This document shows, one piece after another, positions 5,660 to 30,046 of a DNA stretch of 64,000 nucleotides. Below the pieces are notes generated by a model. The model worked only from the letters and a program-made list of their open reading frames with translations, was not told the origin of the DNA and did no database searches. Source of the DNA: a candidate division WOR-3 bacterium (GTDB lineage: Bacteria > Hydrothermota > Tepidihabitantia > Tepidihabitantales > Tepidihabitantaceae); contig VGIR01000005.1 in the NCBI GenBank assembly GCA_016867815.1, positions 779-64,778 on the forward strand, written 5' to 3'. The position numbers were made by a program, and so were the translations under genes. The stretch's first letter is position 1. Every line of letters starts with the position of its first letter.

Positions 5660-6436
5660 ATGCTAGCAGGATCTCAGGCCCCGCCAGCGGGACTGCCCGG
5701 GCAGCCGGAACCTGCGTACGCCGACTCGCTGGCTATGGTCTGCCACGACCTGCGTACGCCGCTGGCGGCAATCAAAGAGGCACTGGCGCTGCTGACGGAG
5801 ACCGCAACCAGCCAGCTCGACGACCGTCAGCACCGCTACCTGGCCGTTGCCCGCGAGGAGATCAACCGGCTCAACCGGATGATCGACGACCTTGTTGAAG
5901 TTTCCCGAATGGAATCAGGCAAGGTTGTCCTGCATCCCAAGGCGGTGGACTTGTCCGAACTGCTCTCCGCTGCGACTGAGAGCCTGTCGCCGCTTGCGGG
6001 CAAGCGCAACCTGACAATCCGGCGCGACGTGCCGTCACTCCTGCCGCAGGTGACCGGTGACCGCGATCAACTGCTCCGCGTCTTCGGCAACCTCCTCGAC
6101 AATGCCATTAAGCATTCGCCTGTGGGCGGGACGGTTCGCGTGGGGATAACCCCTGTAGACCCGCGCTCGGGCGCACCTGCCGGAGATGGTAGCACTGCTC
6201 GCGACGGCTACGTCCAGGTCACGGTTTCGAACGACGGCCCCGGTATCCCGCCAGAGGCAATCGACCGGATCTTCGAGAAGTTCGAGCGTGCGGACTCGCG
6301 CTGCCCGGGAAGCGGGTTGGGCCTGGCAGTAGTCCGCTCGATAGTTGAGATGCACCACGGCAGGGTCTGGGCGGAAAGCACCTCAGGCCAGGGGGCGCGG
6401 TTCCAGTTCACGCTGCCCATCAGGGAGGCTTCGTGA
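5660..6436 (+). CDS. Cytoplasmic histidine kinase with no recognisable sensor domain
   Basis: HDLRTPL H-box about 25 aa from the start; NLLDNAIKH, NDGPGI, GSGLGL; no TM segment. An in-frame stop at 5615 limits N-terminal extension. Confidence 0.85.
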   Translation: MLAGSQAPPAGLPGQPEPAYADSLAMVCHDLRTPLAAIKEALALLTETATSQLDDRQHRYLAVAREEINRLNRMIDDLVEVSRMESGKVVLHPKAVDLSELLSAATESLSPLAGKRNLTIRRDVPSLLPQVTGDRDQLLRVFGNLLDNAIKHSPVGGTVRVGITPVDPRSGAPAGDGSTARDGYVQVTVSNDGPGIPPEAIDRIFEKFERADSRCPGSGLGLAVVRSIVEMHHGRVWAESTSGQGARFQFTLPIREAS

Positions 6437-18733: not shown

Positions 18734-19825
18734 ATGCTTCACGCATCACGCAATGAACGGCCGGCGTCAAGCCTAGGACGCAGAGCTTCGTCCGTCCGTG
18801 TGGGCTCGCTCGTCATTGGCGGGGGCTCGCCGGTATCAGTTCAATCCATGACCAAGACCCGCACCGACGATGTCAGGGCAACCGTCCGCCAGATAAGACG
18901 ACTCGAACGAGCCGGCTGCGAAATGGTGCGCCTGGCAGTCCCGGACACCGCGGCTGCCGCGGCCCTGCCGGAGATCCGCAAGCGCATCGCCCTGCCGCTT
19001 GTTGCCGACGTCCACTTCGACTATCGCCTGGCGCTGAACGCGCTCAAGGCCGGTTTCGACAAAGTACGCATCAACCCCGGCAACATCGGCGCGGTCTGGA
19101 AGGTGCGCGAGATCATCAGCGCGGCTGAGAGCTCCGGTGCGGCGATACGGGTCGGAGTCAACGCCGGTTCCGTCGAGAAATCGATACTGCGCAGACACCG
19201 CCGCCCATCGGTCGCGGCCATGGTCGAAAGCATGGCCGTCTGCCTTGCGCCGTTCGAGAAGCTACGGTTCAAGAACATCGTGCTGTCGGCCAAGTCCACC
19301 GATGTGTCCGAGACTATTGCCGTGTATCGTGAGCTGTCACGGCACTGGTCGTACCCGCTTCACCTCGGGTTGACCGAGGCCGGACCGCCCTTCGAGGGCG
19401 CAATCCGTTCCGCCGCCGCGCTCGCGGTTCTGCTTCTGGAGGGCATCGGCGACACGATTCGCATCTCACTGACCGGAGACCCGGTGCAGGAGGTCACGGC
19501 CGCGTACGAACTGCTGGGGGCTCTGGGCCTGCGCCGCCGCGGCCCGCTGGTCTACTCCTGCCCCACCTGCGGCCGGACCGGTATCAACATTGTTAGACTA
19601 ACGCGGGACGTGAAGCAGGCGCTACGCGATCACCCCTCGCCGCTCAAGGTCGCGGTGATGGGCTGCGTGGTGAACGGGCCGGGCGAGGCGCGAGAGGCGG
19701 ACTTCGGGATTGCCGGCGGCAAGGGCCGCGGCATTGTCTTCGCTCATGGCCGTGTGGTCAAGACCTGCGCCGAAGACCAGCTGGTTCAGTCCCTGCTGCA
19801 CGAAGTCCGGAAGTCCCGTCCCTAG
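18734..19825 (+). CDS. ispG: 4-hydroxy-3-methylbut-2-en-1-yl diphosphate synthase
   Basis: VQSMT, LVADVHFDY, RINPGNIG, IRVGVNAGS, LHLGLTEAG, SCPTCGRT, AVMGCVVNGPGE. Confidence 0.96.
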   Translation: MLHASRNERPASSLGRRASSVRVGSLVIGGGSPVSVQSMTKTRTDDVRATVRQIRRLERAGCEMVRLAVPDTAAAAALPEIRKRIALPLVADVHFDYRLALNALKAGFDKVRINPGNIGAVWKVREIISAAESSGAAIRVGVNAGSVEKSILRRHRRPSVAAMVESMAVCLAPFEKLRFKNIVLSAKSTDVSETIAVYRELSRHWSYPLHLGLTEAGPPFEGAIRSAAALAVLLLEGIGDTIRISLTGDPVQEVTAAYELLGALGLRRRGPLVYSCPTCGRTGINIVRLTRDVKQALRDHPSPLKVAVMGCVVNGPGEAREADFGIAGGKGRGIVFAHGRVVKTCAEDQLVQSLLHEVRKSRP

Positions 19826-20592
19826 TCCGCGGCTGACAGCGCCGCACCGAGCGCCGCAGCCAGCAGCGGCTTACGGGCAACCGTGATCGGCATACCGAGC
19901 GCCTTCTCCAAAGCTGCCCCCATCCCCGGGTTCTGCGCGACTCCACCCGTGAAGACGACGTCAGGCTCAACCCGTAGCCGCGCTGCCATGTTGGCGACCC
20001 GTCTGGCAAGCGCCTCGTGCAGACCGGCAATCACGTCCGCAACCGGAGTGTCGGCTGCAAGCAGCGACAGTATCTCCGACTCGGCCATCACCACACAGAG
20101 GCTGGAGACCGGCACGGGCCTTCGCGACTCAAGGCTCAGCCGGCCGAAATCCTCGAGCGGAACTGACAGTGTCCTTGACAGCACCGACAGAAAATGCCCG
20201 GTCCCGGCTGCGCAGCGGTCGTTCATTACGAAGTCACGCACCTTGCCCGACTCTTCGAGGCTGAGGACCTTTGAGTCCTGTCCACCGATGTCGATGACGG
20301 TGCGGCACGTCGGGTGCCAGTAGCGGATACCCAGGGCCGCGGCCTTGATCTCGGTGATGGTCCCTTCGACCTTGTCCACGACGTGTCGGGCATACCCGGT
20401 CGCTACCACTCCCCGCACATGTCCGGAGAGATCTCTGTGCTCGCTGCGGCACTCAGCCATGACCTGGTGAGCAGTCTCCTTCGGCCTCGGCCCGGTCGGG
20501 ACGACCTTCTCGCAGAAGACCTGTTGGCTCGCGCGGTCGAACACAACCAGCTTGGTGTTGACCGAACCCACGTCTATTCCTGCAGTGATCAC
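19822..20592 (-). CDS. Acyl-CoA dehydratase activase (HgdC/BcrAD/BadFG ASKHA ATPase)
   Basis: GIDVGSVNTK, ATGYAR, IDIGGQDSK, MNDRCAAGTG, SSLCVVMAESE (two cluster Cys), TGGVAQN. Confidence 0.92.
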   Translation of the reverse strand: MITAGIDVGSVNTKLVVFDRASQQVFCEKVVPTGPRPKETAHQVMAECRSEHRDLSGHVRGVVATGYARHVVDKVEGTITEIKAAALGIRYWHPTCRTVIDIGGQDSKVLSLEESGKVRDFVMNDRCAAGTGHFLSVLSRTLSVPLEDFGRLSLESRRPVPVSSLCVVMAESEILSLLAADTPVADVIAGLHEALARRVANMAARLRVEPDVVFTGGVAQNPGMGAALEKALGMPITVARKPLLAAALGAALSAAD

Positions 20593-21641
20593 GCTCTCCT
20601 CCTCCGGCCGTAGTCGGGGTTGACTCCGACCTGCCTGGCCGCACGCACGAACGCCCGGACGTTCTCGGGTGGAGTCTCGACCGGTACTTCACATCCCGTG
20701 GCGGCGACGAACCCCCTCGGACACTTCCGCCCGGCCATGACCATCTCCGCTACTGCGGACTCAATGGTCGTCGGGCCCGAGAGCAGGATGGCCGAAGTAT
20801 CGTAGTTACCGATGATGCGGCACGTATCACCAGCACCGGCCTCGGCGTCGGCCATCTCGATCCGGTCGATGCTCAGCAGGTCGGCGCCGGTCTCAGCCAT
20901 CATGCCGATAGTTGCGCGGGTGTCGCCGCAGATGTGCAGGACGACGTCGAGGTCGTACCGATGCAGGTAGCGAATCACCTCCGCCTCGGAAGGAAGAGCG
21001 AACTCGCGGTAGTGCTCGGCCGAGATGACGCTGCCCGAGGCCAGCGGGTCGACGAGAATCGGCAGGCCGCCCGCGCCGATAATCGCCCGGCAGAATCGAA
21101 CGATGGAGCGCGTCGCGTAGGCAAGCAGGCCCTTCACCCGTTCCGGCTCGGTCAGCAGACCAAGCAGGAAAGCCTCCTGGTCTACCAGCTGCTGGGCGGT
21201 TGTGAATGGTGCCGGAACGTAGGCGAGAATCGGCACCGTGTCTCCCCTGGCCTCGTAGGCGTAGGCTACGGCGTCGAGGTAGACTCGCAGCCGTCCGTCT
21301 CGCAGCGGGTCAGCCAGGCGGTCGTCCAACGTGGTGAGATCCGTCCACTTCGGTTTCGCCAGCAGCGGCAGGTCGTCCTCGGGGTAGTCGAACCGGGAAC
21401 CCAGCGCCTCGGCAACCATCCCCACCTCGGAGAAGAACGAGATGAAGTCGATGCCATAGGTCTCCTGCGCGACGAGCTGGCTCCGCGCCATTGCCATCCC
21501 GTCGGTGTAGTATTCACGTACGGGGATGCCGGCGATCCGCGCCGCGTGGGCAGTGACCAGCGGGAACACCGGCACCCGGTCCTGCGGTTCGTCGATGACG
21601 AGCAGGCCGAAGCGCTCGCGCGGGGTCAGCAGGTCTTTCAG
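20589..21641 (-). CDS. UroD/MtaA-family methylcobamide:acceptor methyltransferase, copy 2
   Basis: DRVPVFP, EVGMVAEALG, Zn motif LHICG...GCEVP. The frame extends to CTG 21641, which overlaps the upstream TGA and has GAGGAG upstream; the track start is GTG 21575. Confidence 0.85.
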   Translation of the reverse strand: MKDLLTPRERFGLLVIDEPQDRVPVFPLVTAHAARIAGIPVREYYTDGMAMARSQLVAQETYGIDFISFFSEVGMVAEALGSRFDYPEDDLPLLAKPKWTDLTTLDDRLADPLRDGRLRVYLDAVAYAYEARGDTVPILAYVPAPFTTAQQLVDQEAFLLGLLTEPERVKGLLAYATRSIVRFCRAIIGAGGLPILVDPLASGSVISAEHYREFALPSEAEVIRYLHRYDLDVVLHICGDTRATIGMMAETGADLLSIDRIEMADAEAGAGDTCRIIGNYDTSAILLSGPTTIESAVAEMVMAGRKCPRGFVAATGCEVPVETPPENVRAFVRAARQVGVNPDYGRRRRA

Positions 21642-23041
21642 CGGCGGCTCCTCAGCACTTCGAGGAAAGCCTCGATCCGGGTTTGCAGCTGCAGCCCAAT
21701 CTCGTTTGAGGGCGGCGCGACGTCGAACTCCAGTACCGGCAGATCGAGTTCCTGCTTCACGAAGTCGGATATCAGCCGCGCTTCCATCGCACAGTGCGAG
21801 CCGCCAAGGATACCGGAGATGATCACACCTTCGGCCTGTCGCTCCCGCGCCTGCCGTATCACCGACGCGGCCCGCTGCCGCGAGGTGCCGATCAGCGAAG
21901 CGGCCAGGAACGACCCGGCAATCGCCTGGAGTGGCGGCCTCGCTTCGTCCATCACTTCGAGCGCCTGATTGATGACGTACTCGGTGCCGACGACGCGCGC
22001 CCCCGCGTCTTCGACGTAGGTGAGTAGCAGCGGGTCGGCCGGCGGCGTGACCCAGACCAACCGAAGCGCATCCTCAGGAAGCACCCTCTGCCCACTTGCC
22101 AAGCGGCGCTCGGCCGTGGCCAGCAGGTGCTCCAGCACCTCCGTCCACTCCTCCATATCCGAGTAGTAGTGCAGATTGCCAAACTCGACAACCATCATCT
22201 CAAGAGCAGCCAGCGCCGCGTCCCGGAACGATAACTCGCGCAGCCTCGCGACCAGTCTCCTCACTCGGTTCGCCCGCCGCACGCCTTCGCGCAGTTCGTC
22301 CTCAGTGATCGAGTGATCCGTGAGCTTCTCCAACCGCTCGACGACACGCTCGTACTCCTTCACCAGCAACTCTTCCAGCGGTCCCGTGGGCCTTGCGTCG
22401 CAGCGCATCGGCTCCTCGACCCACAGCATGTCGGACGCGAATGACTCCACCAATTGCTCGACCCCGGAGTAGTCGTCGCAGGACGCGCCGGTAGAGGCAA
22501 TGACCAGGTCTGGATTGGGGAAGTACGAGTGCTTGGAGAACGCGCCCAGGGCGGCACGCGAGAAGCAGGTTGCATCGCCGACGCCCAGTTCGGCGGCAGC
22601 ATCAAAGAGCACGCGGCTCTCCATCGCGAACGGAGTCCACCAGATGCAGTCGGGGTAGAACGCCACCGAGTTTGGAAACGAATTGACTATCACCGGCACT
22701 GCGCCAAGGTCGCCCATCGTCGCGATGACCCGCCGCCCGGTCTGCCGGGCGCGGAACAACCGCTCGGTCTCATTCTGCACAAACCCCCACATCCGCAGGG
22801 CCGCCAGGGAGTTGTCGAACTTGAGACGGCGCAGGTGACGCGTACCATAGATGGCGAATGTCTGGGGAGGGAACAGGTACTTGGACCAGGCCTCGCCGTT
22901 GCCATAGTAGTGGTAGCGTTCAATCAGCTCGTCCGGCACGCGGTCGAACAAGTCCATCCACTCATCGAACCCGACCCGCGCCGGCTGCGGGTCGCTGTAC
23001 CCGACATTCGACATTCGACATTCGGACTTCGGACTTCGCAT
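21638..23041 (-). CDS. 2-hydroxyacyl-CoA dehydratase-family Fe-S subunit (HgdA/BcrB-like)
   Basis: ATG 23041 follows the upstream stop directly; PDCIWW, DATCFSRA, GASCDDY, SHCAME, LPVLEFD...QTRIEAFLE C-terminus. Confidence 0.8.
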   Translation of the reverse strand: MRSPKSECRMSNVGYSDPQPARVGFDEWMDLFDRVPDELIERYHYYGNGEAWSKYLFPPQTFAIYGTRHLRRLKFDNSLAALRMWGFVQNETERLFRARQTGRRVIATMGDLGAVPVIVNSFPNSVAFYPDCIWWTPFAMESRVLFDAAAELGVGDATCFSRAALGAFSKHSYFPNPDLVIASTGASCDDYSGVEQLVESFASDMLWVEEPMRCDARPTGPLEELLVKEYERVVERLEKLTDHSITEDELREGVRRANRVRRLVARLRELSFRDAALAALEMMVVEFGNLHYYSDMEEWTEVLEHLLATAERRLASGQRVLPEDALRLVWVTPPADPLLLTYVEDAGARVVGTEYVINQALEVMDEARPPLQAIAGSFLAASLIGTSRQRAASVIRQARERQAEGVIISGILGGSHCAMEARLISDFVKQELDLPVLEFDVAPPSNEIGLQLQTRIEAFLEVLRSRR

Positions 23042-23042
23042 G

Positions 23043-24155
23043 CTAAAGCGTCTCCAGGAACGCCTCGACCCGGGTGCGCATCTGCTCCCGGTTCTCGGTC
23101 GAGTAGTCAGTGTCAAGATGCAGCATGGGCAGACCGAGCGCCTCCTGCAGTCGCCTGACCTCGAAACTCCATGGGTCGCAGTAGAGCAAGGTCTTGTACA
23201 CAAGCCCCACTACCCGGAACTCGCGGGCGAGCTTCTGCGCGTACTCGTACGTGGCCGAGTTCGGTCGGCGATGCATGCAGGGCCGGCTGAAGTAGAAGCG
23301 GGCGATCCGGTTTATCGGCGCACCGTCTGCAGGCACGTCCTCCGAGAACCAGCGCGTCCCCGTGCAGAGTATGTCGGTCACGATGTCCGCCCTCTCTTCG
23401 ACGAGGTCCAGCAGCCATCGGTCATCCTCGGTCAACATGCTGCCGCCGAGCATAAGTCGCGGCCGTCGTCCTTCCGGTCGCGGCCGAGCGGCTACCATCC
23501 GCAGCACCTCCTCGACAAGCGAGACCGCCTTGACCGGGCCCAGCAGCCACGCAGTCGCCGCAAGGTCGAGCATCGTGCTGCCGGAGAGCAACGGCCCGTT
23601 CATCCGTCGCGTGTCGCTTGCCTGCCGCAGCATTCCCCGCATCCGGTTGAACGCGGCAATCTCGGATTCCAGCCGATCTGTGACGATGGCGGTGCCGGTC
23701 AGGGTTTCCATCTTCCCGGTCAGCAACTCCAATTGCCGCCTGAACTCCGCTACCCGATGCGGCAGAGGCTCGGACGTTCGCGGCAGGTAGAGCTGGAACA
23801 CCGGGATGCCGAAGTGCTTTTCAATCGACTCCGGCAGCCGGCGCATCATGTCGCACGTGTTTACGCTGAGCACGGCGTCCACCTGCTGGTACAACCGGTC
23901 GCGACCGAAGTTGCCCATGCACGCATTGCAGAATGAACAGGCGTCGGCCCGCAGGTACTGCTCTCCCGCCTCCTCGGCCGCTTGCCCCCCACGCATCAAG
24001 CGGACTGGAATGGCACCGGCCGCCTGAACCAGTTCCACCGGCGCGTAGATGCAGAAGTAGCCGACAACCTTCACGCCTGCTTTCCGGGCGGCGGATATCT
24101 CCTCTATCCTCTCCTGCCGTATCTGTTCGAGGGTCGCGCGCGGTATCAGTTCCAT
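23043..24155 (-). CDS. 2-hydroxyacyl-CoA dehydratase-family protein with Cys in both halves (double-cubane-like)
   Basis: GYFCIYAPVEL, ACSFC, NTCDMMRR, ILCTGTR, RPC, YCDPW, LHLDTDYS...RTRVEAFLE; start ATG 24155. Confidence 0.85.
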   Translation of the reverse strand: MELIPRATLEQIRQERIEEISAARKAGVKVVGYFCIYAPVELVQAAGAIPVRLMRGGQAAEEAGEQYLRADACSFCNACMGNFGRDRLYQQVDAVLSVNTCDMMRRLPESIEKHFGIPVFQLYLPRTSEPLPHRVAEFRRQLELLTGKMETLTGTAIVTDRLESEIAAFNRMRGMLRQASDTRRMNGPLLSGSTMLDLAATAWLLGPVKAVSLVEEVLRMVAARPRPEGRRPRLMLGGSMLTEDDRWLLDLVEERADIVTDILCTGTRWFSEDVPADGAPINRIARFYFSRPCMHRRPNSATYEYAQKLAREFRVVGLVYKTLLYCDPWSFEVRRLQEALGLPMLHLDTDYSTENREQMRTRVEAFLETL

Positions 24156-25555
24156 GATTCGAGCCCCATCGATTCGACGAATATCTGCTCGAACTGCGGG
24201 TGACTGCTCAGCACCACTTCGCGGCACTTGGCGGCGAACCGTTCCGCTTCCGTGAACAGACTGGTGTCCAGTGTGGCCCGGACAGCCCCGAGCAAAGCCA
24301 AGTTGCCGTGCTGGCGAATGCGGTCAAGCGGTGTCCGCGGCAGCAATCCGATTCTCACGGCCGCGCCGGGGTTCATCGCGGCGCCGAACTTCCCCGTCAC
24401 GTGCACACGTTCGATATCCGAGGCGGCCGCACCCCACTCAGCCAGCAGCACTCTGATGGCTGCGGCAATCGCGCCCTTGGCAAGCTGCATCTCACGCAGG
24501 TCGGCCTGGGTGAGGTAGATAGGCTTGTGTCCCTGCTTCAGTTCCAGACGGTCGTGGCCGGCAATCCTGCCGGAAGGATCCACCTTGCCGACCCGGACCG
24601 CTTCGGCCACGGCGTCGAGTACGCCCGAACCGCAGATGCTCTTCGGCTCTCCGCCGCCGATGACGTCCAGTTTGAATCTGCCGCGGCTGAACCGCGCCGC
24701 CTTCACCGCACCGGCCTGTGCCAGGCTACCGCACTCCAGGGTCGCGCCCTCGAATGCCGGGCCGGCTGCGGTCGAGGTCACGAGCATCCGCTCCCGGCTA
24801 CCCAGTACCACCTCGCCGTTGGTCCCGGCGTCAACCAGCAGCGACAGACGCCTGGTCCGATGCATGCCGGCGGCCAGGATCGCCGCAGCGCAGTCCGAGC
24901 CGACGAAGCTGCCGAGCAGCGGCAGCATCCTCGTCCAACGGCCGTCCCGCTGGCTCGTGAGGGACTCGCGCAGCGTCAGCTCCGGCTCATAGGGGAACTC
25001 ACCCAGCGTCGCCGCGCTCTTGCCCATCAGGAAGTGAGCCATCGCGGTATTGCCCACCGCGATGATCGGGCGCTCCCGCGGGATTCCCGCATCGTCGATG
25101 AACCTGTGCAGCACCGGCGTCAGCGGAGTCCGGCTGAGCTTTGCGCCGGCGGCGATCCGGCTCATCACATCCGCGCCAAAGACAATCTGCGGGTTCAGCT
25201 CCTCACGACGGGCCGCGATCCGGCGCCGCTCCACGTCGACTGCGGCGAGCGAGATCGTCGTAGTGCCGATGTCAACGGCAAGGCGGAGACTTGCCGAGTT
25301 TCCGGTGCGCCTGACACCTCTGCCCCGTACGACCGGTACGTCTCTCGCTACCTTCACCGAGACGGGCAAAGCCGGCGCATACTGACAGGCAAGAACGCTG
25401 CTCCAGCCTCCGACATCTAGAACCTGGGCTCTGCACTTGCCACAGGTGCCCGCGCCCCCACAGTCCGAAGGAAGCCGCACACCGGCGCCGAGGAGAAGTT
25501 CACGCAGGTTCTGTCCGCCATGCGGCGCGATCGTCACCCTCAAGCCGACCTCCAC
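24146..25555 (-). CDS. ASKHA-domain corrinoid reductive activator with N-terminal 2Fe-2S domain (RACo/RamA-like)
   Basis: SDCGGAGTCGKC...LACQ, AVDIGTTT, FGADVMSRI, GSFVGSD, DAGTNGE, STAAGPAFEG, SICGSG, LTQADLREMQLAKGAI. Confidence 0.92.
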   Translation of the reverse strand: MEVGLRVTIAPHGGQNLRELLLGAGVRLPSDCGGAGTCGKCRAQVLDVGGWSSVLACQYAPALPVSVKVARDVPVVRGRGVRRTGNSASLRLAVDIGTTTISLAAVDVERRRIAARREELNPQIVFGADVMSRIAAGAKLSRTPLTPVLHRFIDDAGIPRERPIIAVGNTAMAHFLMGKSAATLGEFPYEPELTLRESLTSQRDGRWTRMLPLLGSFVGSDCAAAILAAGMHRTRRLSLLVDAGTNGEVVLGSRERMLVTSTAAGPAFEGATLECGSLAQAGAVKAARFSRGRFKLDVIGGGEPKSICGSGVLDAVAEAVRVGKVDPSGRIAGHDRLELKQGHKPIYLTQADLREMQLAKGAIAAAIRVLLAEWGAAASDIERVHVTGKFGAAMNPGAAVRIGLLPRTPLDRIRQHGNLALLGAVRATLDTSLFTEAERFAAKCREVVLSSHPQFEQIFVESMGLESWN

Positions 25556-26544
25556 TCTCTCGCCGTTGCCACCAGTGCCCGGACATTCTCCTTCGGGCTC
25601 TCGGTCGGCACATCACAACTCGATGAGAGGATAAGACTCTGTCCGCCGCGATCGAGGCACGTTGTCGCCGCGGCCGTGACCTGTTCCGGCGGGCCTTCCA
25701 GCAGGAGATTGGTCGAGACGTTGCCCATGAGAACCACGCGGTCGCCGACTTCCTGTCTCGCCAGCGCCAGGTCCATTTCGTCGATGCTCAGAAAGTCCGC
25801 CCCGGTGGCGGCCATGTCGCGAAGCAGGCCTTTGGTCTCGCCGCAGATGTGTAGCCCGGCCTTGGCGCCGGCCTCGTGGATCGAGCGGACCAACTGCTCA
25901 AGGTACGGACGGGCGAATTCGCGAAACATCTCCGGGCTCACCAGGCTGCCGGACGCCACCGGGTCGCCGATGAACGGAATCCCACCCGCCTTCACGACGG
26001 CGTCGGCGTAGGCGAGCTGGTTGTCGGTTGCGATTCGAAGGAACTGGTGTGCCCGTCCGGGGTCGGTTAGCAGATCCTCCAGGAACTTGTCGATGCCGTG
26101 CAAGAAGGATGCGAGGGAGAAGGGGCCTTTGAGAGAGGTCAGAATCGGCGCTTCGTCTTCGAGCAACGCCTTGAGCCGACTGGTGGCCTCGAGTACGACC
26201 GGCATTCGGCCATCCTTCTCCGGGTCTGCCGGTTCGAGCCTGGAAAGACGCGGCGGCTCGAGCAGGAACGGGTCATCATCCTCGGGAATCAGCACCTGCG
26301 CCCCCATCGCCTCCGCCTCAACCATCGTATCGGTGAAAACCATGATGAGGTCGTAGCCATAGAACCGATACGCCGAGTAGAGCACCCGCGCCAGTGTGTC
26401 CGGCTGGGTCACGGCCTCGGAGATGGAGAACCCCTCCAGCCGCGCGGCATGGTTCGCCGCAACCATCGGGAAGACCACGGGCCGGGCCGGCTTCTCGCCG
26501 CGCATCAGCGCGGCAAACCGCCTGCTCCGGTTCTGCTCGCCCAC
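25540..26544 (-). CDS. UroD/MtaA-family methylcobamide:acceptor methyltransferase, copy 1
   Basis: DTMVEAEAMGA, GPFSLA, DPVASGSLVSP, Zn motif LHICG...SSSCDVP. Confidence 0.9.
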   Translation of the reverse strand: MGEQNRSRRFAALMRGEKPARPVVFPMVAANHAARLEGFSISEAVTQPDTLARVLYSAYRFYGYDLIMVFTDTMVEAEAMGAQVLIPEDDDPFLLEPPRLSRLEPADPEKDGRMPVVLEATSRLKALLEDEAPILTSLKGPFSLASFLHGIDKFLEDLLTDPGRAHQFLRIATDNQLAYADAVVKAGGIPFIGDPVASGSLVSPEMFREFARPYLEQLVRSIHEAGAKAGLHICGETKGLLRDMAATGADFLSIDEMDLALARQEVGDRVVLMGNVSTNLLLEGPPEQVTAAATTCLDRGGQSLILSSSCDVPTESPKENVRALVATAREWRSA

Positions 26545-26560
26545 GCCTAACTCCTAACTG

Positions 26561-27211
26561 CTACCTGCTGGCCTGCCCTGCCAGCCGCTCTATCTCCAGC
26601 ACCGCTGTGTGCGCGTCGGGTGCGAACGCGTCCGCGCCGATGTTACCGGCAAACTGCGCAGTGACCGGCGCACCCCCGACGATCACCTTCACGCCGGGGC
26701 GCAGTCCTACCTTGTCCAGCGCTTCGACCACCTTGCCCATCCTTGGCATGGTGGTGGTCATCAGCGACGAAACGCCGAGCACTGCGGCACCGTTCTCAGC
26801 CGCCTTGACGAACTCCGGCAGCGGGACATTTCGGCCGAGGTCGACAACCTCGAATCCGGCCGCCTGAACCATCACCTTCACTATGTTCTTGCCGATGTCG
26901 TGGATATCGCCCTGCACCACGCCCAGAATGACCTTGCCCTTTGTAGCCTGCGGCTTGTAGCTTGCGGCCTTCGACAGTATGTCGAACCCGGCGTACATCG
27001 CCTTGGAGGCGAGCAGCACCTCCGGGACGAAGCACTCCTTGGCCGCGAACTTCTCCCCCATCCGGCGCATGCCGGCGGCAAGGCCTTGCGTCATTGCGTC
27101 CTGCGGCGACAAACCCTGCTCAAGCACCTTGCGCGCCAGCTCGGCCACCAGTTCCGGCTTCATCGTAGTGACGGCATCAGCCAGTCGGGCGAAGAGATCT
27201 TTCTCAGCCAT
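26561..27211 (-). CDS. Cognate corrinoid protein (MtbC/MttC/MtaC-like; four-helix cap plus Rossmann B12 domain)
   Basis: GLAAGMRRMGEKF...FVPEVL cap; B12 motif GDIHDIGKNIV, VDLGRNVP, SSLMTTT, VGGAP; start ATG 27211 with RBS GAAGG. Confidence 0.93.
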   Translation of the reverse strand: MAEKDLFARLADAVTTMKPELVAELARKVLEQGLSPQDAMTQGLAAGMRRMGEKFAAKECFVPEVLLASKAMYAGFDILSKAASYKPQATKGKVILGVVQGDIHDIGKNIVKVMVQAAGFEVVDLGRNVPLPEFVKAAENGAAVLGVSSLMTTTMPRMGKVVEALDKVGLRPGVKVIVGGAPVTAQFAGNIGADAFAPDAHTAVLEIERLAGQASR

Positions 27212-27319
27212 ACCTTCTATGATAGTTGTCCGGATAGCTTCGGGCAAAGGAAACCGCGGGCGAGCCACAATCGCGTGCAGCCCGCCCGCAGACTGACCGT
27301 CGCTAGCCCGTCCTATGCA

Positions 27320-28114
27320 CTATTTCTCGGCCATGTACCAGCCGCGACCAACCTGGTGAGCATGAGCCGCGTCGCGCCACAGGTTCACCAGCCCGGTAGC
27401 GAAGCCGAACAGGTCCGGCCCGAAGTTCTTCAGGATGGTCGGCTTCAGATCCACCTCCACCATCTTCTTGTACTCGTCGAAGCACTTCGCGTACTCCGCC
27501 GTCTGGTCCTCGACCTTGATGTTCACGAACCCGTGCTTCTTCATCAGGTCGCCCCAGCCCTGCAAGGTCTCCATGTACGGGAAGGCCATCGACTCGTTCA
27601 GCTTGGCCATAAGCGGCTCGTCAACCTTGCCAGTAACGACCCAGTCGGTGAAGATGATCTTCCCGCCCGGGGCCAGCACGCGAAAGGCCTCGGCCATGAG
27701 CTGGTCCTTGTCGGTGACATAGCACCACGCTTCCTGGCCCCAGACCACACAGAACGTGTCCTTCTTGAATGGCATATCGAGCGCCGTGCCGTCGACGAAG
27801 GACACCAGGTTATCGAGACCCGCCACCTTGGTGCGCTCAATCGCCTTGGTGAGCATCGTCTTGGTGAAGTCGAGCCCGGTCACTTTCACGCCGTACTTCT
27901 TCGCGATGTGCCGCGCCGGCGCGCCCAGGGCCGAGCAGACGTCGAGCACGTGCATGCCCGGCTTCAGCCCGACCGCTGCGGCCATTCGGTCGGTCACCTC
28001 ATCCTTGCCCGAGTGAATCTGCTCGGACATAACTGCTTCCCACAGCAAGCCGCCCGGCCCGTCATAAACGTCCTGAACGTCCTTGCCTGTATAGTCGTAA
28101 CGTTTCGGCATCAT
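27320..28114 (-). CDS. Class I SAM-dependent methyltransferase, sarcosine/dimethylglycine N-methyltransferase-like
   Basis: Start ATG 28114 with RBS GAGGAGG; W...EQIHSG, VLDVCSALGAPAR (atypical motif I), TGLDF, DMPF...F, FRVLAPGGKIIFTDW. Confidence 0.85.
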   Translation of the reverse strand: MMPKRYDYTGKDVQDVYDGPGGLLWEAVMSEQIHSGKDEVTDRMAAAVGLKPGMHVLDVCSALGAPARHIAKKYGVKVTGLDFTKTMLTKAIERTKVAGLDNLVSFVDGTALDMPFKKDTFCVVWGQEAWCYVTDKDQLMAEAFRVLAPGGKIIFTDWVVTGKVDEPLMAKLNESMAFPYMETLQGWGDLMKKHGFVNIKVEDQTAEYAKCFDEYKKMVEVDLKPTILKNFGPDLFGFATGLVNLWRDAAHAHQVGRGWYMAEK

Positions 28115-28631
28115 GCCTCCTCGTGGAAACGGCGAACTCCGAGGTCCGAACGCCGAACTCCGGATCCGCCGTTTGTTGCTCCGCGGCGACGCTTGAAGCT
28201 CCAAAGGTCTCTTACCGAGCCTTGGCGCTCTTGGCGTCCTTGGCGGTTCTCTTCTAGTCTGGCCGGCAAACTGCCGGCACAAAGCCGGTCAATCATACCG
28301 CTTGTCTACCTAAGGTTGTGGTTGTGGTTCTGTAACAGCAAACTGGTAACTGGAAACTGGTAACTGAGTCCGTCTCGTCCGGTCTCCGAGGCGCACGGCC
28401 CCGGCACAAGTGCCGAGTCATGGCACGCGCCTCCGGCGCGTCACAAGAGACCTATCAACATTCACCGTACGATGATAGACACTCCCCCCGGACGAGTCAA
28501 ATGCCGCCGCGGCGTGACATCATCTGCAAGAATGTGGACCGCAGTGGATAGGTGTCTCTGGGCCTCGCGAGCCCCCCAGCGGTCAGTCCAGATTCTAGCC
28601 CCGTGGCAAGACTGAAGAGACTCGGCGGATT

Positions 28632-29741
28632 TCAGCGAAGTGAAAGAAGGCCGGAACTCGCAGGCACTCCGGCTTCCGGCTTCCCGCTCTTGGCGCGCGA
28701 GAGGCTCAAGCTGCATCTCCCCTGGAGGATTCCATTGAAGCCATCCATTGCCAGAATCGCGTGACGGCCTGTCGAAGCCAACCTCACTGTGTCGATTCTC
28801 GCATTGGTGGGATCTGTAACTCCCGCGATTCTAGTGCCGGCCGTATTGTAAAGTTCGACCCTGGGCCACAGGTTTCCCGAGTCTGCCGCCACGATTATCG
28901 TGACGACGTCGTCCGCGTTCCCGTCAAACGTATACGCATCAATCTGAGCCGTACTATCGATCAGTAGTCCGACCTTCGCCCCATAGGCAATAGAAGTGGC
29001 GTTTCCCGGGTCGGCGGTACGCTGCAAAGACAAGCCATACCTTCCTGTCATTTTGCCATCGAACCCGTCGGTAACCAAGATGGCATGGCGGCCTGTCGTC
29101 GCCAACCCTACGCCGTCGACCCGCGCATCGGACGGATCGATGGCTTCCGCGATTCTGGTTCCCGACGGATCGTAGATCTCGATCCCGCACCACAGAGTCC
29201 CCGAATCTACGGCCATGAGCATCGTGACGATGTCGCCCGCATTCCCCTCGAAAGTATAGGCGGCAATCTGGGCCGTACTGTCGATGGAGGATTGTACTCC
29301 TGACCCGTAGGTAATGGGAATCGCACTCCCGGGGTCTGCCGTCCGCTGAACGGACAGGCCGTATCTGCCCGTCCGCGTACTATCGAACCCATCCATCGCC
29401 AGGACCGCATAGCGACCCGTCTCTGTCAACCTGACGGTGTCTATCCTCGCCCGGGTCGGATGCCTGGCGTCGGTGATCTTCGTGCCGGACGGATCGAGGA
29501 GGTCGATCCGGGACCACATGGTCCCCGAGTCCACCACCATCACTAGCGTGACTACTTCGCCCGCGTTCCCATCAAACCCATACTCGTCTACCTCCGCCGC
29601 CATGCCGATAGACGCATGAGTGTTGTCGCCGTAGTGAATCAGTTGCTGTTCGGGCGGGTCCGGCGTCGTAACACAACCCGCAATGAACAGAGAAGCTGCC
29701 AGACAAAGATTACGCACTGCTATCCTCCTTGCCGATGTCAC
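28632..29741 (-). CDS. Lipoprotein with three ~103-aa PPC-like beta-sandwich repeats
   Basis: Lipobox LFIAGC; three repeats of Y.FDGNAG.VVT...DSG..W..I..YDPSGT.I....TGR.AIL..DGF; promoter TTGACA-N16-TATGAT on the - strand near 29945-29970. Confidence 0.8.
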   Translation of the reverse strand: MTSARRIAVRNLCLAASLFIAGCVTTPDPPEQQLIHYGDNTHASIGMAAEVDEYGFDGNAGEVVTLVMVVDSGTMWSRIDLLDPSGTKITDARHPTRARIDTVRLTETGRYAVLAMDGFDSTRTGRYGLSVQRTADPGSAIPITYGSGVQSSIDSTAQIAAYTFEGNAGDIVTMLMAVDSGTLWCGIEIYDPSGTRIAEAIDPSDARVDGVGLATTGRHAILVTDGFDGKMTGRYGLSLQRTADPGNATSIAYGAKVGLLIDSTAQIDAYTFDGNADDVVTIIVAADSGNLWPRVELYNTAGTRIAGVTDPTNARIDTVRLASTGRHAILAMDGFNGILQGRCSLSLSRAKSGKPEAGVPASSGLLSLR

Positions 29742-30046
29742 GGCTGACGCCTGCCGGCTTCGGTCCGTACCACCGCGCCGGTCCGAAACGACGTACTACT
29801 GCCTGTGGTTCGACCCGCAGTAGCCACGCCGCCAGGCGCATGAGGCATCGGTTCCCGAGCGGGAAGTCTCTCAGCCAAGGCCGGCGTCACGGTCTCCTCA
29901 AGTCAGGAACACCAAACCGAGAATCCACTTTCGACGGCAATCATAGTTCCTACAGCAACCGTGTCAAGCCTGCTGGAAGCGAGAGGGCCCGCCCCTGCTC
30001 TCATGACGCCTGCCGCGACCAGCGGGCCCGGATTGACCGGCCGCAA

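Follow-up and report, generated by a model that had tools for sequence, protein, structure and literature searches.

A two-module gene cluster of candidate division WOR-3 bacteria joining corrinoid methyl transfer to an ATP-driven iron–sulfur reductase, and its possible role in selenium mobilisation

Described relatives and the WOR-3 locus

In Methanococcus, the SdmABC set (Niess & Klein 2004; PMC11097638) combines a corrinoid protein with two UroD-family methyltransferases, of which one acts as the substrate-specific methyltransferase (MT1) and the other methylates a thiol. The set serves the gain of selenium, is required for the use of dimethylselenide and is induced 5.6–7.8 log2-fold by selenium starvation (PMC11097638). 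An MT1 role for a UroD-family protein has also been proposed for the mlp gene clusters (MGCs), and a described variant of the type 1 clusters, tied to selenium, encodes MtaA-like proteins (Mlps), a corrinoid protein, a Ram/RACE activase and the double-cubane protein DCCP with its reductase (PMC10418091). Type 1 clusters are those in which the Mlp2 and Mlp3 clades are both represented. In the same study the machinery for selenocysteine (Sec) was present in 87% of the species with a type 1 mlp cluster, and ClMlp2 was found to demethylate methylcobalamin with selenide, with an apparent KM of 80 µM (PMC10418091). Here we describe a cluster of eight genes related to these systems, at positions 19822–28114 of a 64-kb window (the whole stretch of DNA that was analysed) from contig VGIR01000005.1 of a candidate division WOR-3 bacterium. 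With a probability that we put at roughly one half, the cluster is a selenium-mobilising system composed of two joined modules that feed SelD.

The iron–sulfur (Fe-S) enzymes related to the second module have precedents of their own. Among double-cubane proteins that score above 400 bits against the model NF040772, 955 of 970 occur in assemblies that contain SelD (Haft, bioRxiv 2022.07.06.499078), and BzdNO provides the precedent for an [8Fe-9S] relay that serves a catalytic cluster held by three cysteines (PMC11971306).

A sequence-only reading of the window had pointed to eight tightly packed genes on one strand. All eight open reading frames (ORFs) do lie on the minus strand, overlapping or separated by short gaps, and the Pfam and NCBIfam models agree with the family given there for each of them. 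In the order of transcription they begin with g1 (M; 27320–28114), a class I S-adenosylmethionine (SAM)-dependent methyltransferase (SAM-MT), followed by g2 (C; 26561–27211), a corrinoid protein of the MtbC/MtgC-like cognate type with a DxHxxG motif, g3 (A1; 25540–26544), an MtaA-like protein, and g4 (R; 24146–25543), an ATP-dependent corrinoid reductive activase of the RACo/RamA type with an N-terminal [2Fe-2S] ferredoxin domain. The next two genes, g5 (alpha; 23043–24155) and g6 (beta; 21638–23014), encode HGD-D family proteins with six cysteines and three conserved cysteines, respectively. The cluster is completed by a second MtaA-like gene, g7 (A2; 20589–21641), and by g8 (v; 19822–20592), which encodes an ATP-dependent activase of the HgdC/DCCP-R type from the BcrAD_BadFG family.

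The corrinoid part of the window cluster matches the 'mlp'/SdmABC type, which has been implicated in the demethylation of methyl selenides. Several MtaA-like proteins with a His-Cys-Cys signature are encoded together with a corrinoid protein and an activase of the bacterial Ram/RACE type; the four corresponding genes of the window (g2, g3, g4 and g7) are co-directional, with g5 and g6 interposed in the same direction, and the Pfam annotations show no tetrahydrofolate (THF) methylase within 20 kb. Some members of the mlp group carry DCCP and its reductase, and a role in methyl-selenide or methyl-sulfur metabolism has been proposed. In contrast to those clusters, however, the cluster described here has only two Mlps, split by the inserted alpha/beta pair, its Fe-S enzyme is a heterodimer of a six-Cys and a three-Cys subunit in place of the canonical seven-Cys DCCP, and a dedicated SAM-MT is present. 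The cluster also falls outside the 2-kb core spacing rule by which Kountz & Balskus define a 'true MGC', since g4 ends at 24146 and g7 begins at 21641, 2,504 nucleotides away; the excess of 0.5 kb comes from the alpha and beta genes, which fill the interval from the RACo gene to A2. Part one of the published organism list, which has two parts, includes neither WOR-3 nor its allies. With SdmABC the likeness is one of gene composition, although the archaeal acceptor is coenzyme M and the described set includes no RACo-type activase, Fe-S reductase or SAM-MT. The sequence-only reading had taken the combination of genes for an uncharacterised pathway; that holds for the enzymes of this particular cluster, but the related type 1 variant with DCCP is published and tied to selenium.

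Conservation and the neighbourhood of selenocysteine genes

The order of g2–g8 (corrinoid–A1–RACo–alpha–beta–A2–activase) is identical in about 50 species-level genomes; it is the same in the first 20 loci and then in further loci from WOR-3, Stahlbacteria, KSB1 and related lineages. This arrangement is far beyond chance, and the neighbourhood search shows the gene set to be conserved together, on which the sequence-only reading depended. Close relatives are nearly all from candidate division WOR-3. The beta family as a whole was found in 372 species-level genomes by a profile search, with a search pattern built on a 7-sequence subset of a 16-sequence beta alignment. It is nevertheless a small family: of the 1.8 billion representatives in the library searched, 40 match at E≤1e-30.

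Gene neighbourhoods were analysed for 84 loci, of which 54 bear corrinoid genes and 30 do not. In the 30 corrinoid-free loci, all from other phyla, M is found with one or more alpha-like subunits, beta and an activase, and no corrinoid, MtaA-like or RACo genes are nearby; the hosts are Planctomycetota, Victivallales, Lentisphaerae, Aminicenantes, Anaerolineales, Armatimonadota and Brocadiia. Of the 24 corrinoid-free loci with enough upstream sequence, 23 encode the SAM-MT. Two modules are joined in the cluster, one for corrinoid methyl transfer and the other an ATP-driven Fe-S reductase with its SAM-MT. M with alpha/beta and the activase is the older unit, and the corrinoid set is an addition in WOR-3-type lineages and in one Planctomycetota locus (L062). 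Because M, alpha/beta and the activase occur together without corrinoid genes, the SAM-MT is the partner of the Fe-S enzyme and not of the corrinoid genes, with which the sequence-only reading had paired it.

The same loci bear on the idea that alpha/beta, the activase and the SAM-MT reactivate the corrinoid by a MetH-like reductive methylation of Co(II), duplicating or replacing RACo. Such a role would suit the minimal variants (M–C–alpha–beta–A2–v), which have no RACo, and g1 weakly matches the model for the 'corrinoid protein-associated methyltransferase CpaM' (39.9 bits, cutoff 180). However, the unit of M, alpha/beta and activase is found in 30 loci with no corrinoid gene nearby, and most of the WOR-3 loci retain RACo. 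As the Fe-S module occurs without corrinoid genes, we rank this explanation as the least probable of those considered.

Two loci deserve comment. A contig labelled Planctomycetia (L005, PMZT01000246.1) carries a WOR-3-type cluster with 71–88% identity to the window proteins, and it is probably mis-binned or mislabelled and not from a Planctomycete. On a WOR-3 chromosome (CP070680.1, L017/L180) the order is M–DCCP–activase–selD–C–A1–R–alpha–beta; the beta match covers residues 6–204 only, and there is no A2 or second activase within the next 10 kb. Decay or rearrangement may have affected this locus.

All ORFs of the related loci were clustered, and the recurrent neighbours were assigned using the NCBIfam equivalog models. 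These neighbours include selD (363 bits, cutoff 125), selA (546 bits, cutoff 268) and selB (372 bits, cutoff 242), and at least one of the three lies within 5 kb in 35 of the 84 loci. The proportion is 18/30 for corrinoid-free loci, or 9/11 where at least 3 kb of flank is available on both sides, and 17/54 for corrinoid-bearing loci, or 10/25 with the same flanks. A gene for tRNA-Sec was found in 9 of the 27 loci scanned. In complete WOR-3 chromosomes (L186, L190 and L193) the cluster lies between selD and selA, in the order selD–(DCCP–activase)–M–C–A1–alpha–beta–A2–activase–selA. A relative of the window cluster with 80–87% identity (L003/L174) has the order M–Omp28x2–selD(Sec)–C–A1–R–alpha–beta–A2–v on one contig, and its SelD has TGA at the catalytic G-[C/U]-x-x-K position; by this codon, the WOR-3 relatives are read as users of Sec.

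A link through a selenoprotein within the cluster itself was considered and rejected. In-frame TGA at a Cys position was found in none of the eight families (0/8), and such codons occur only in the SelD and Omp28-like neighbours; the linkage to sel genes is therefore not a by-product of a cluster selenoprotein. Because the related clusters adjoin selenocysteine genes, the reading shifts towards selenium scavenging. The observation made in the sequence-only reading is confirmed, and its interpretation is supported in part; the decisive context, which lay outside the letters available to that reading, is the adjacency of selD, selA, selB and tRNA-Sec in the related loci, and it points away from a wholly unknown pathway.

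The neighbours also weigh on an alternative in which the cluster serves methyl-sulfur metabolism or anaerobic methionine salvage. The Mlps would then methylate or demethylate thioethers or thiols, and alpha/beta would cut C–S bonds reductively, a function analogous to that of the nitrogenase-like methylthio-alkane reductase that is encoded near 'non-selenium' mlp clusters. The His-Cys-Cys zinc site fits sulfur as well as selenium, the window itself is without sel genes, and Kountz & Balskus associate a non-selenium mlp clade with MarHDK-like ATP-driven reductases. On the other hand, the recurrent neighbours in the relatives are sel genes and tRNA-Sec, the conserved neighbours include no genes of methionine salvage or sulfur assimilation, and the WOR-3 relatives use Sec, as judged from the TGA at the catalytic Cys of SelD. 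We regard the sulfur alternative as unlikely, although it is the first that we would consider in place of selenium mobilisation.

SelD paralogues feed selenometabolite pathways (SenABC), and the cluster could conceivably use selenium downstream of SelD, with M and alpha/beta building or maturing a methylated selenium metabolite or a selenium-containing cofactor from selenophosphate. A selenium-bridged double cubane has been raised by Haft as a formal possibility for such a cofactor (bioRxiv 2022.07.06.499078). In keeping with this view, the gene lying closest to the cluster is selD, and the SelD of the corrinoid-free form is fused to an AhpD-like CxxC domain. The experimental precedent for corrinoid and Mlp proteins, however, concerns only the demethylation of selenium compounds to gain selenium, and the genes for the protein-Sec route (selA, selB and tRNA-Sec) are adjacent as well. 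Downstream use thus seems improbable too, and we place it just after the sulfur alternative.

The fused SelD, seen in L063 (12057–13652) and in 15 other corrinoid-free loci, is a protein of about 530 amino acids. It carries a Cys-rich N-terminal extension (CICNPxxPCPC…CTCAG), and its C-terminal AhpD-like CxxC domain resembles the C-terminal domains of MduS and of ArsM/AhpD selenoproteins. Many WOR-3 loci have two genes for Omp28-like lipoproteins (thioredoxin-like, CxxC) and one for a protein with a type IX secretion system (T9SS) tail upstream of selD; examples of the Omp28-like genes are found in L003 (1279–4700), L035 (811–3391) and, upstream of selD, in L185, L186 and L190. In the last three loci the first Cys of the Omp28-like protein is encoded by TGA, and these copies are probably selenoproteins.

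Canonical DCCP genes have a selenium neighbourhood of their own and adjoin selD in approximately 17 of 80 loci. A seven-Cys DCCP gene, with or without an activase, is the immediate neighbour of selD in loci from Bathyarchaeota, Dehalococcoidales, Actinomycetota and Thermodesulfobacteriota (L100, L101, L105, L111–L113, L115, L121, L123, L128, L133, L139, L153 and L167), and in Bathyarchaeota no activase stands between the two. Only 2 of the 80 canonical-DCCP loci contain an Mlp gene (L154 and L165), and L154 is not a full cluster.

Proteins of the two modules

The corrinoid protein g2 matches the Pfam families B12-binding and B12-binding_2, with a score of 190.5 bits against TIGR02370 that is under the cutoff of 215.3. 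Both g3 and g7 belong to the URO-D family, and the Pfam and NCBIfam models place MtaA/CmuA as the nearest subfamily. Their scores against TIGR01463 (MtaA/CmuA; cutoff 235.4 bits) are 217.8 and 166.8 bits, respectively, by which measure they are near relatives of the MtaA/CmuA family that stand outside the NCBI threshold. Alignment to MtaA from M. mazei (PDB code: 4AY7) gives 134.7 bits for g3 and 89.1 bits for g7. The His-x-Cys...Cys zinc ligands align with the ligand positions of MtaA, corresponding to H232, C234 and C310 in g3 and to H214, C216 and C295 in g7, where numbering is from the GTG at 21575. The motif, which the sequence-only reading had recognised in both proteins, is kept in 41–48 of 43–50 orthologues, and the resulting His-Cys-Cys sphere is that of the type 1 MGC proteins and of S- or Se-methyltransferases in the UroD superfamily. 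The more divergent of the two MtaA-like proteins is g7; its gene always lies between those for beta and the activase and is still present in minimal variants devoid of A1 and RACo.

The g4 protein has the domain layout of RACo and the bacterial Ram/RACE activases, with an ASKHA C-terminal domain, a RACo middle domain and an N-terminal [2Fe-2S] domain. The Pfam matches (PF14574 RACo_C_ter, 213.4; PF17651 Raco_middle, 91.8; PF00111 Fer2, 25.4) are all over the gathering scores, and the match is under the equivalog cutoffs for AcsV (231 versus 800 bits) and RamA. In the Pfam annotations, which cover window positions ~0–55 kb, there is no MT1 of the MtaB/MttB/MtmB type and no pterin-type methyl-THF methyltransferase within 20 kb, nor does any annotated gene belong to a pterin-binding or MtrH family. 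Both absences had been remarked on before. The missing MT1 does not, however, amount to a real gap, given that a UroD protein acts as MT1 in SdmABC.

For both g5 and g6 the best sequence match is DCCP (PDB code: 6ENO). The six cysteines of g5 closely follow the [8Fe-9S] ligands of BzdN, of which Cys36, Cys73, Cys100, Cys263 and Cys327 align exactly and Cys293 within one residue. Relative to the seven-Cys motif of DCCP, six of the seven are present and the second Cys is replaced by Met; this six-Cys pattern is conserved in WOR-3. The g6 protein has three Cys (C150, C179 in a 'CDD' motif and C408 in an 'SHC' motif) that are invariant across 16 diverse homologues, with spacings of 29 and 229 residues versus 33 and 252 in BzdO, and carries a conserved N-terminal extension of ~90 residues. 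An AlphaFold (AF2) model of g6 has a predicted local distance difference test score (pLDDT) of 90.9, and a Foldseek search of the PDB with this model returned only DCCP, HadB, BzdN/O and MbdO/N (template modelling scores 0.65–0.73, E≤1e-13).

The curated models place the pair away from the established classes. Against NF040772, the double-cubane anaerobic reductase model (cutoff 350 bits), g5 scores 207.5 bits and g6 scores 95.8 bits with three of the seven Cys. The score of g5 against the benzoyl-CoA reductase model TIGR03190 is 101.8 bits (cutoff 453.8), and the HadC model (cutoff 700 bits) returns 122.8 bits for g5 and 19.6 bits for g6. The activase g8, in contrast, is well above the cutoff of TIGR00241 (235.8 versus 125.4 bits), with residues 2–252 aligned on profile positions 1–247 of 248, and under that of the BzdQ model (149.2 versus 380.2 bits). 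It is the sole activase gene beside alpha/beta and is of the homodimer type, with no BzdPQ pair. The earlier claim of an embedded reductase of the ATP-dependent, low-potential Fe-S type is upheld.

Since alpha has the six-Cys pattern of an [8Fe-9S] cluster and beta the three-Cys pattern of a BzdO/HadB-type [4Fe-4S] cluster, the pair is assigned from its cysteines as a BzdNO-like heterodimer and not as a plain DCCP or a dehydratase. BzdNO and MbdON (PDB codes: 8S02 and 9G87), the catalytic core of class I benzoyl-CoA reductase, likewise have two subunits of the HGD-D fold, with six Cys for an electron-storing [8Fe-9S] double cubane and three Cys for an open-site catalytic [4Fe-4S] cluster, and an ATP-hydrolysing activase of the BcrAD family, although for the window proteins this architecture is read from the sequence pattern. 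Identity to beta is only 16–19%, the ~90-residue extension and the 'CDD' and 'SHC' motifs are particular to beta, and the window has one activase in place of the BzdP/Q pair and no CoA-ester pathway context. DCCP with its partner DCCP-R (PDB codes: 6ENO and 7YYL) gives the best match in sequence and fold and shares the ATP-dependent homodimeric reductase partner and the association with SelD. It is, however, a homodimer with seven conserved Cys per chain, of which alpha has six and beta three. The 2-hydroxyacyl-CoA dehydratases (HadBC/HgdAB) differ from the pair in that g5 has the six-Cys double-cubane pattern, and no CoA-transferase gene lies near the window cluster.

These comparisons bear on the possibility that the reductase acts on an organic substrate, an aromatic compound or an acyl-CoA ester, in a combination of methyl transfer with radical or reductive chemistry that is unrelated to selenium. 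The sequence-only reading had proposed such a combination, naming no substrate, and alpha/beta do have the fold of benzoyl-CoA reductase and 2-hydroxyacyl-CoA dehydratase. Yet neither the window flanks nor the conserved neighbours contain genes for a CoA ligase, CoA transferase, beta-oxidation or an aromatic pathway, the curated cutoffs for both enzyme classes are missed by large margins, and the single activase is of the homodimer type and not BzdPQ. We consider an organic substrate of this kind very improbable.

The subunit composition varies in other phyla. In Planctomycetota the subunit encoded beside beta has three Cys only and a full seven-Cys DCCP is encoded separately, whereas Victivallales have a six-Cys alpha plus an extra seven-Cys DCCP. 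Two of the Planctomycetota DCCPs (L075, 7303–8562; L080, 7729–9003) have Cys-rich N- and C-terminal tails (for example DCC…DCC…CC and …CGKTCCS), a composition which suggests that they bind a soft metal or metalloid. Within the beta family, two representatives, P0129 (867 amino acids) and P0135 (861 amino acids), are approximately double the normal length with two matched stretches, and may be fusions of beta with another subunit.

The fold of g1 is that of a class I SAM-MT (Methyltransf_11/25/31, Ubie) and is SDMT/ArsM-like. Its scores are under the cutoffs of the models for sarcosine/dimethylglycine methyltransferase, DVU_1556, ArsM (NF008823; 69.3 bits, cutoff 263) and CpaM. The family is marked by the motifs 'GEQIHxGG', motif I 'DLC[SC]xxGAG', 'WGEDAWCYV' and 'FTDW', and has two invariant Cys, in motif I and in 'WGEDAWCYV', near the SAM site. 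A Sec-containing extension of g1 was ruled out, as the stop codon is TAG. The g1-family scan returned at least 600 loci among the matches listed, and in a crude neighbour-joining tree the WOR-3 enzymes are sister to a stand-alone clade among these same matches. The sister clade (45–50% identity) comprises proteins from Chlorobiaceae, Thermoplasmatota, Bathyarchaeia, Methanoperedens, Methanoculleus and Chloroflexia. In all 43 loci of this clade (L205–L248) a radical SAM/SPASM gene lies alongside. The archaeal loci in this clade also adjoin TIGR04282/TIGR04283 'arsenosugar biosynthesis' glycosyltransferases; examples of the sister clade are found at L244 (4582–5661, with the methyltransferase at 5770), L225 (3420–4100) and L215 (1996–2700). 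These relationships support a predicted metalloid-directed methyltransferase, with a sister clade that leaves selenium and arsenic unseparated. Within WOR-3 the position of g1 varies, the gene being found beside the corrinoid gene, as in the window, a few kb further upstream with selD and two Omp28-like genes in between, or beside an extra DCCP–activase pair.

On this evidence the cluster could also be viewed as a system for methylating or demethylating arsenic or another metalloid (As, Te, Sb or Hg), in which g1 would be ArsM-like, the Mlps would be methylcobamide-dependent metalloid methyltransferases, and methylated or pentavalent species would be the substrates of the reductase. The weak match of g1 to arsenite methyltransferase models (69 bits against a cutoff of 263), the radical SAM and TIGR04282/TIGR04283 glycosyltransferase genes beside its sister clade and the conserved Cys near the SAM site are in accord with such a role. 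However, every ArsM cutoff is missed by a wide margin, no ars genes are found among the conserved neighbours, and the neighbours that do repeat are selenium genes. The metalloid alternative is accordingly given a low probability, below that of downstream use and above that of an organic substrate.

The gene starts were refined by comparison with orthologues. The start of g5 was moved to 24155 because the first 24 codons of the longer ORF of 394 amino acids hold stop codons in the orthologues; the Joint Genome Institute (JGI) gene call is 370 amino acids. For g2, 27211 is probably the start, with an alternative GTG at 27268, and the JGI gene call is 216 amino acids. The start of g7 is a CTG (21639–21641) that overlaps the stop codon of g6 ('CTGA'), where the orthologues have an ATGA start/stop overlap with the beta gene and the N-terminus MKDLLTPRERF. 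An identical CTG is seen in a contig from a second sample (L021, 11374–11376), and because it recurs in a different sample it is taken as a population variant and not a read error. The identical g6 protein is also encoded by JGI metagenome contigs, the longest of 68 kb.

Between g1 and g2, a GC-rich hairpin of 16 bp followed by a T-rich tract (27254–27291, minus strand) resembles a terminator, and a consensus scan gave a weakly supported promoter-like site at 27247–27219. As these features precede g2, g1 may be transcribed separately from g2–g8. No Rfam family, riboswitches included, was found in 19500–29800 by an Rfam scan. At the other end of the cluster, the stop codon of g8 overlaps that of the convergent ispG by 4 nucleotides (19822–19825), so there is no room for a terminator between the two. 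According to the precomputed Pfam annotation of genes at ~0–55 kb, the flanks hold unrelated housekeeping genes that include ispG, an EPSP-synthase-family gene, T9SS-tail proteins, obg, dprA, nadC, Pho regulators and peptidases. The window contains no Omp28-like genes, extra DCCP copies or any tRNA gene.

A proposed route to selenide and its implications

We infer selenium as the element, the direction of flux, the MT1 and MT2 assignments and the nature of the reductase substrate from the relationships described above. In the proposed scheme, the first module (g2, g3, g4 and g7) would carry out corrinoid methyl transfer of the SdmABC or 'mlp' type. The g7 protein, as the probable MT1, would demethylate a methyl-selenium (or methyl-sulfur) compound, with transfer of the methyl group to the Co(I) form of g2, freeing a selenol or selenide, and g3, as the probable MT2, would pass the methyl group from methyl-Co(III) to a thiol acceptor; Co(II) formed by oxidation would be re-reduced by g4 at the expense of ATP. 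The two MtaA-like proteins are assigned in this way because g3 is nearer to MtaA in its alignment score and g7 is kept in the minimal variants.

The second module (g1, g5, g6 and g8) would be an ATP-driven low-potential reductase with a core like that of BzdNO. Electrons would be injected by g8 into the [8Fe-9S] double cubane of alpha, serving as the point of entry and storage, and would pass to a site-differentiated [4Fe-4S] cluster in beta, held by three Cys and having an open iron site, where a small selenium species would be reduced or a C–Se or Se–Se bond cut. Candidate substrates are Se(0) or polyselenide, a diselenide, or a C–Se compound made or modified by g1, which may methylate a selenium nucleophile or activate the substrate. 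The resulting pool of selenide would be supplied to SelD.

Several points weigh against this scheme. The proteins of the cluster are known from sequence alone, and the 64-kb window has no selD, selA, selB or tRNA-Sec. The adjacency to selD seen in relatives fits the supply of selenide and the consumption of selenophosphate alike; the nearest clade to g1, with its radical SAM and arsenosugar-type glycosyltransferase neighbours, suits arsenic as well as selenium; and the His-Cys-Cys zinc site would equally accommodate sulfur.

What is new here is a conserved unit of a SAM-MT and a BzdNO-like heterodimer that lies in selenocysteine loci of many uncultured phyla. More tentatively, and with less confidence than we attach to selenium mobilisation by the window cluster, M, alpha/beta and the activase could form an unrecognised and widespread system for the ATP-driven release of selenide for SelD at very low potential. 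Its sources would be elemental or poly-selenium, diselenides, or C–Se compounds activated by SAM-dependent methylation. The system would be present in at least 372 species-level genomes, from WOR-3, Stahlbacteria, KSB1, Zixibacteria, Planctomycetota, Victivallales, Aminicenantes, Anaerolineales and Armatimonadota.

Clusters of the published 'mlp' kind probably occur outside Firmicutes as well, rearranged such that the published search criteria would not find them. The locus offers a compact candidate pathway, consisting of a six-Cys/three-Cys heterodimer, one activase, one SAM-MT and an optional corrinoid demethylation set. With a defined gene set, two questions become testable, namely the cellular role of double-cubane-family reductases, for which benzoyl-CoA reductase is the only known role, and the means by which reduced, methylated or elemental selenium is turned into selenide for SelD in anaerobes. 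If the tentative proposal of a widespread selenide-releasing system is true, a double-cubane-family reductase would for the first time have a defined function that is non-aromatic, and a step so far missing from bacterial selenium assimilation would be filled in.

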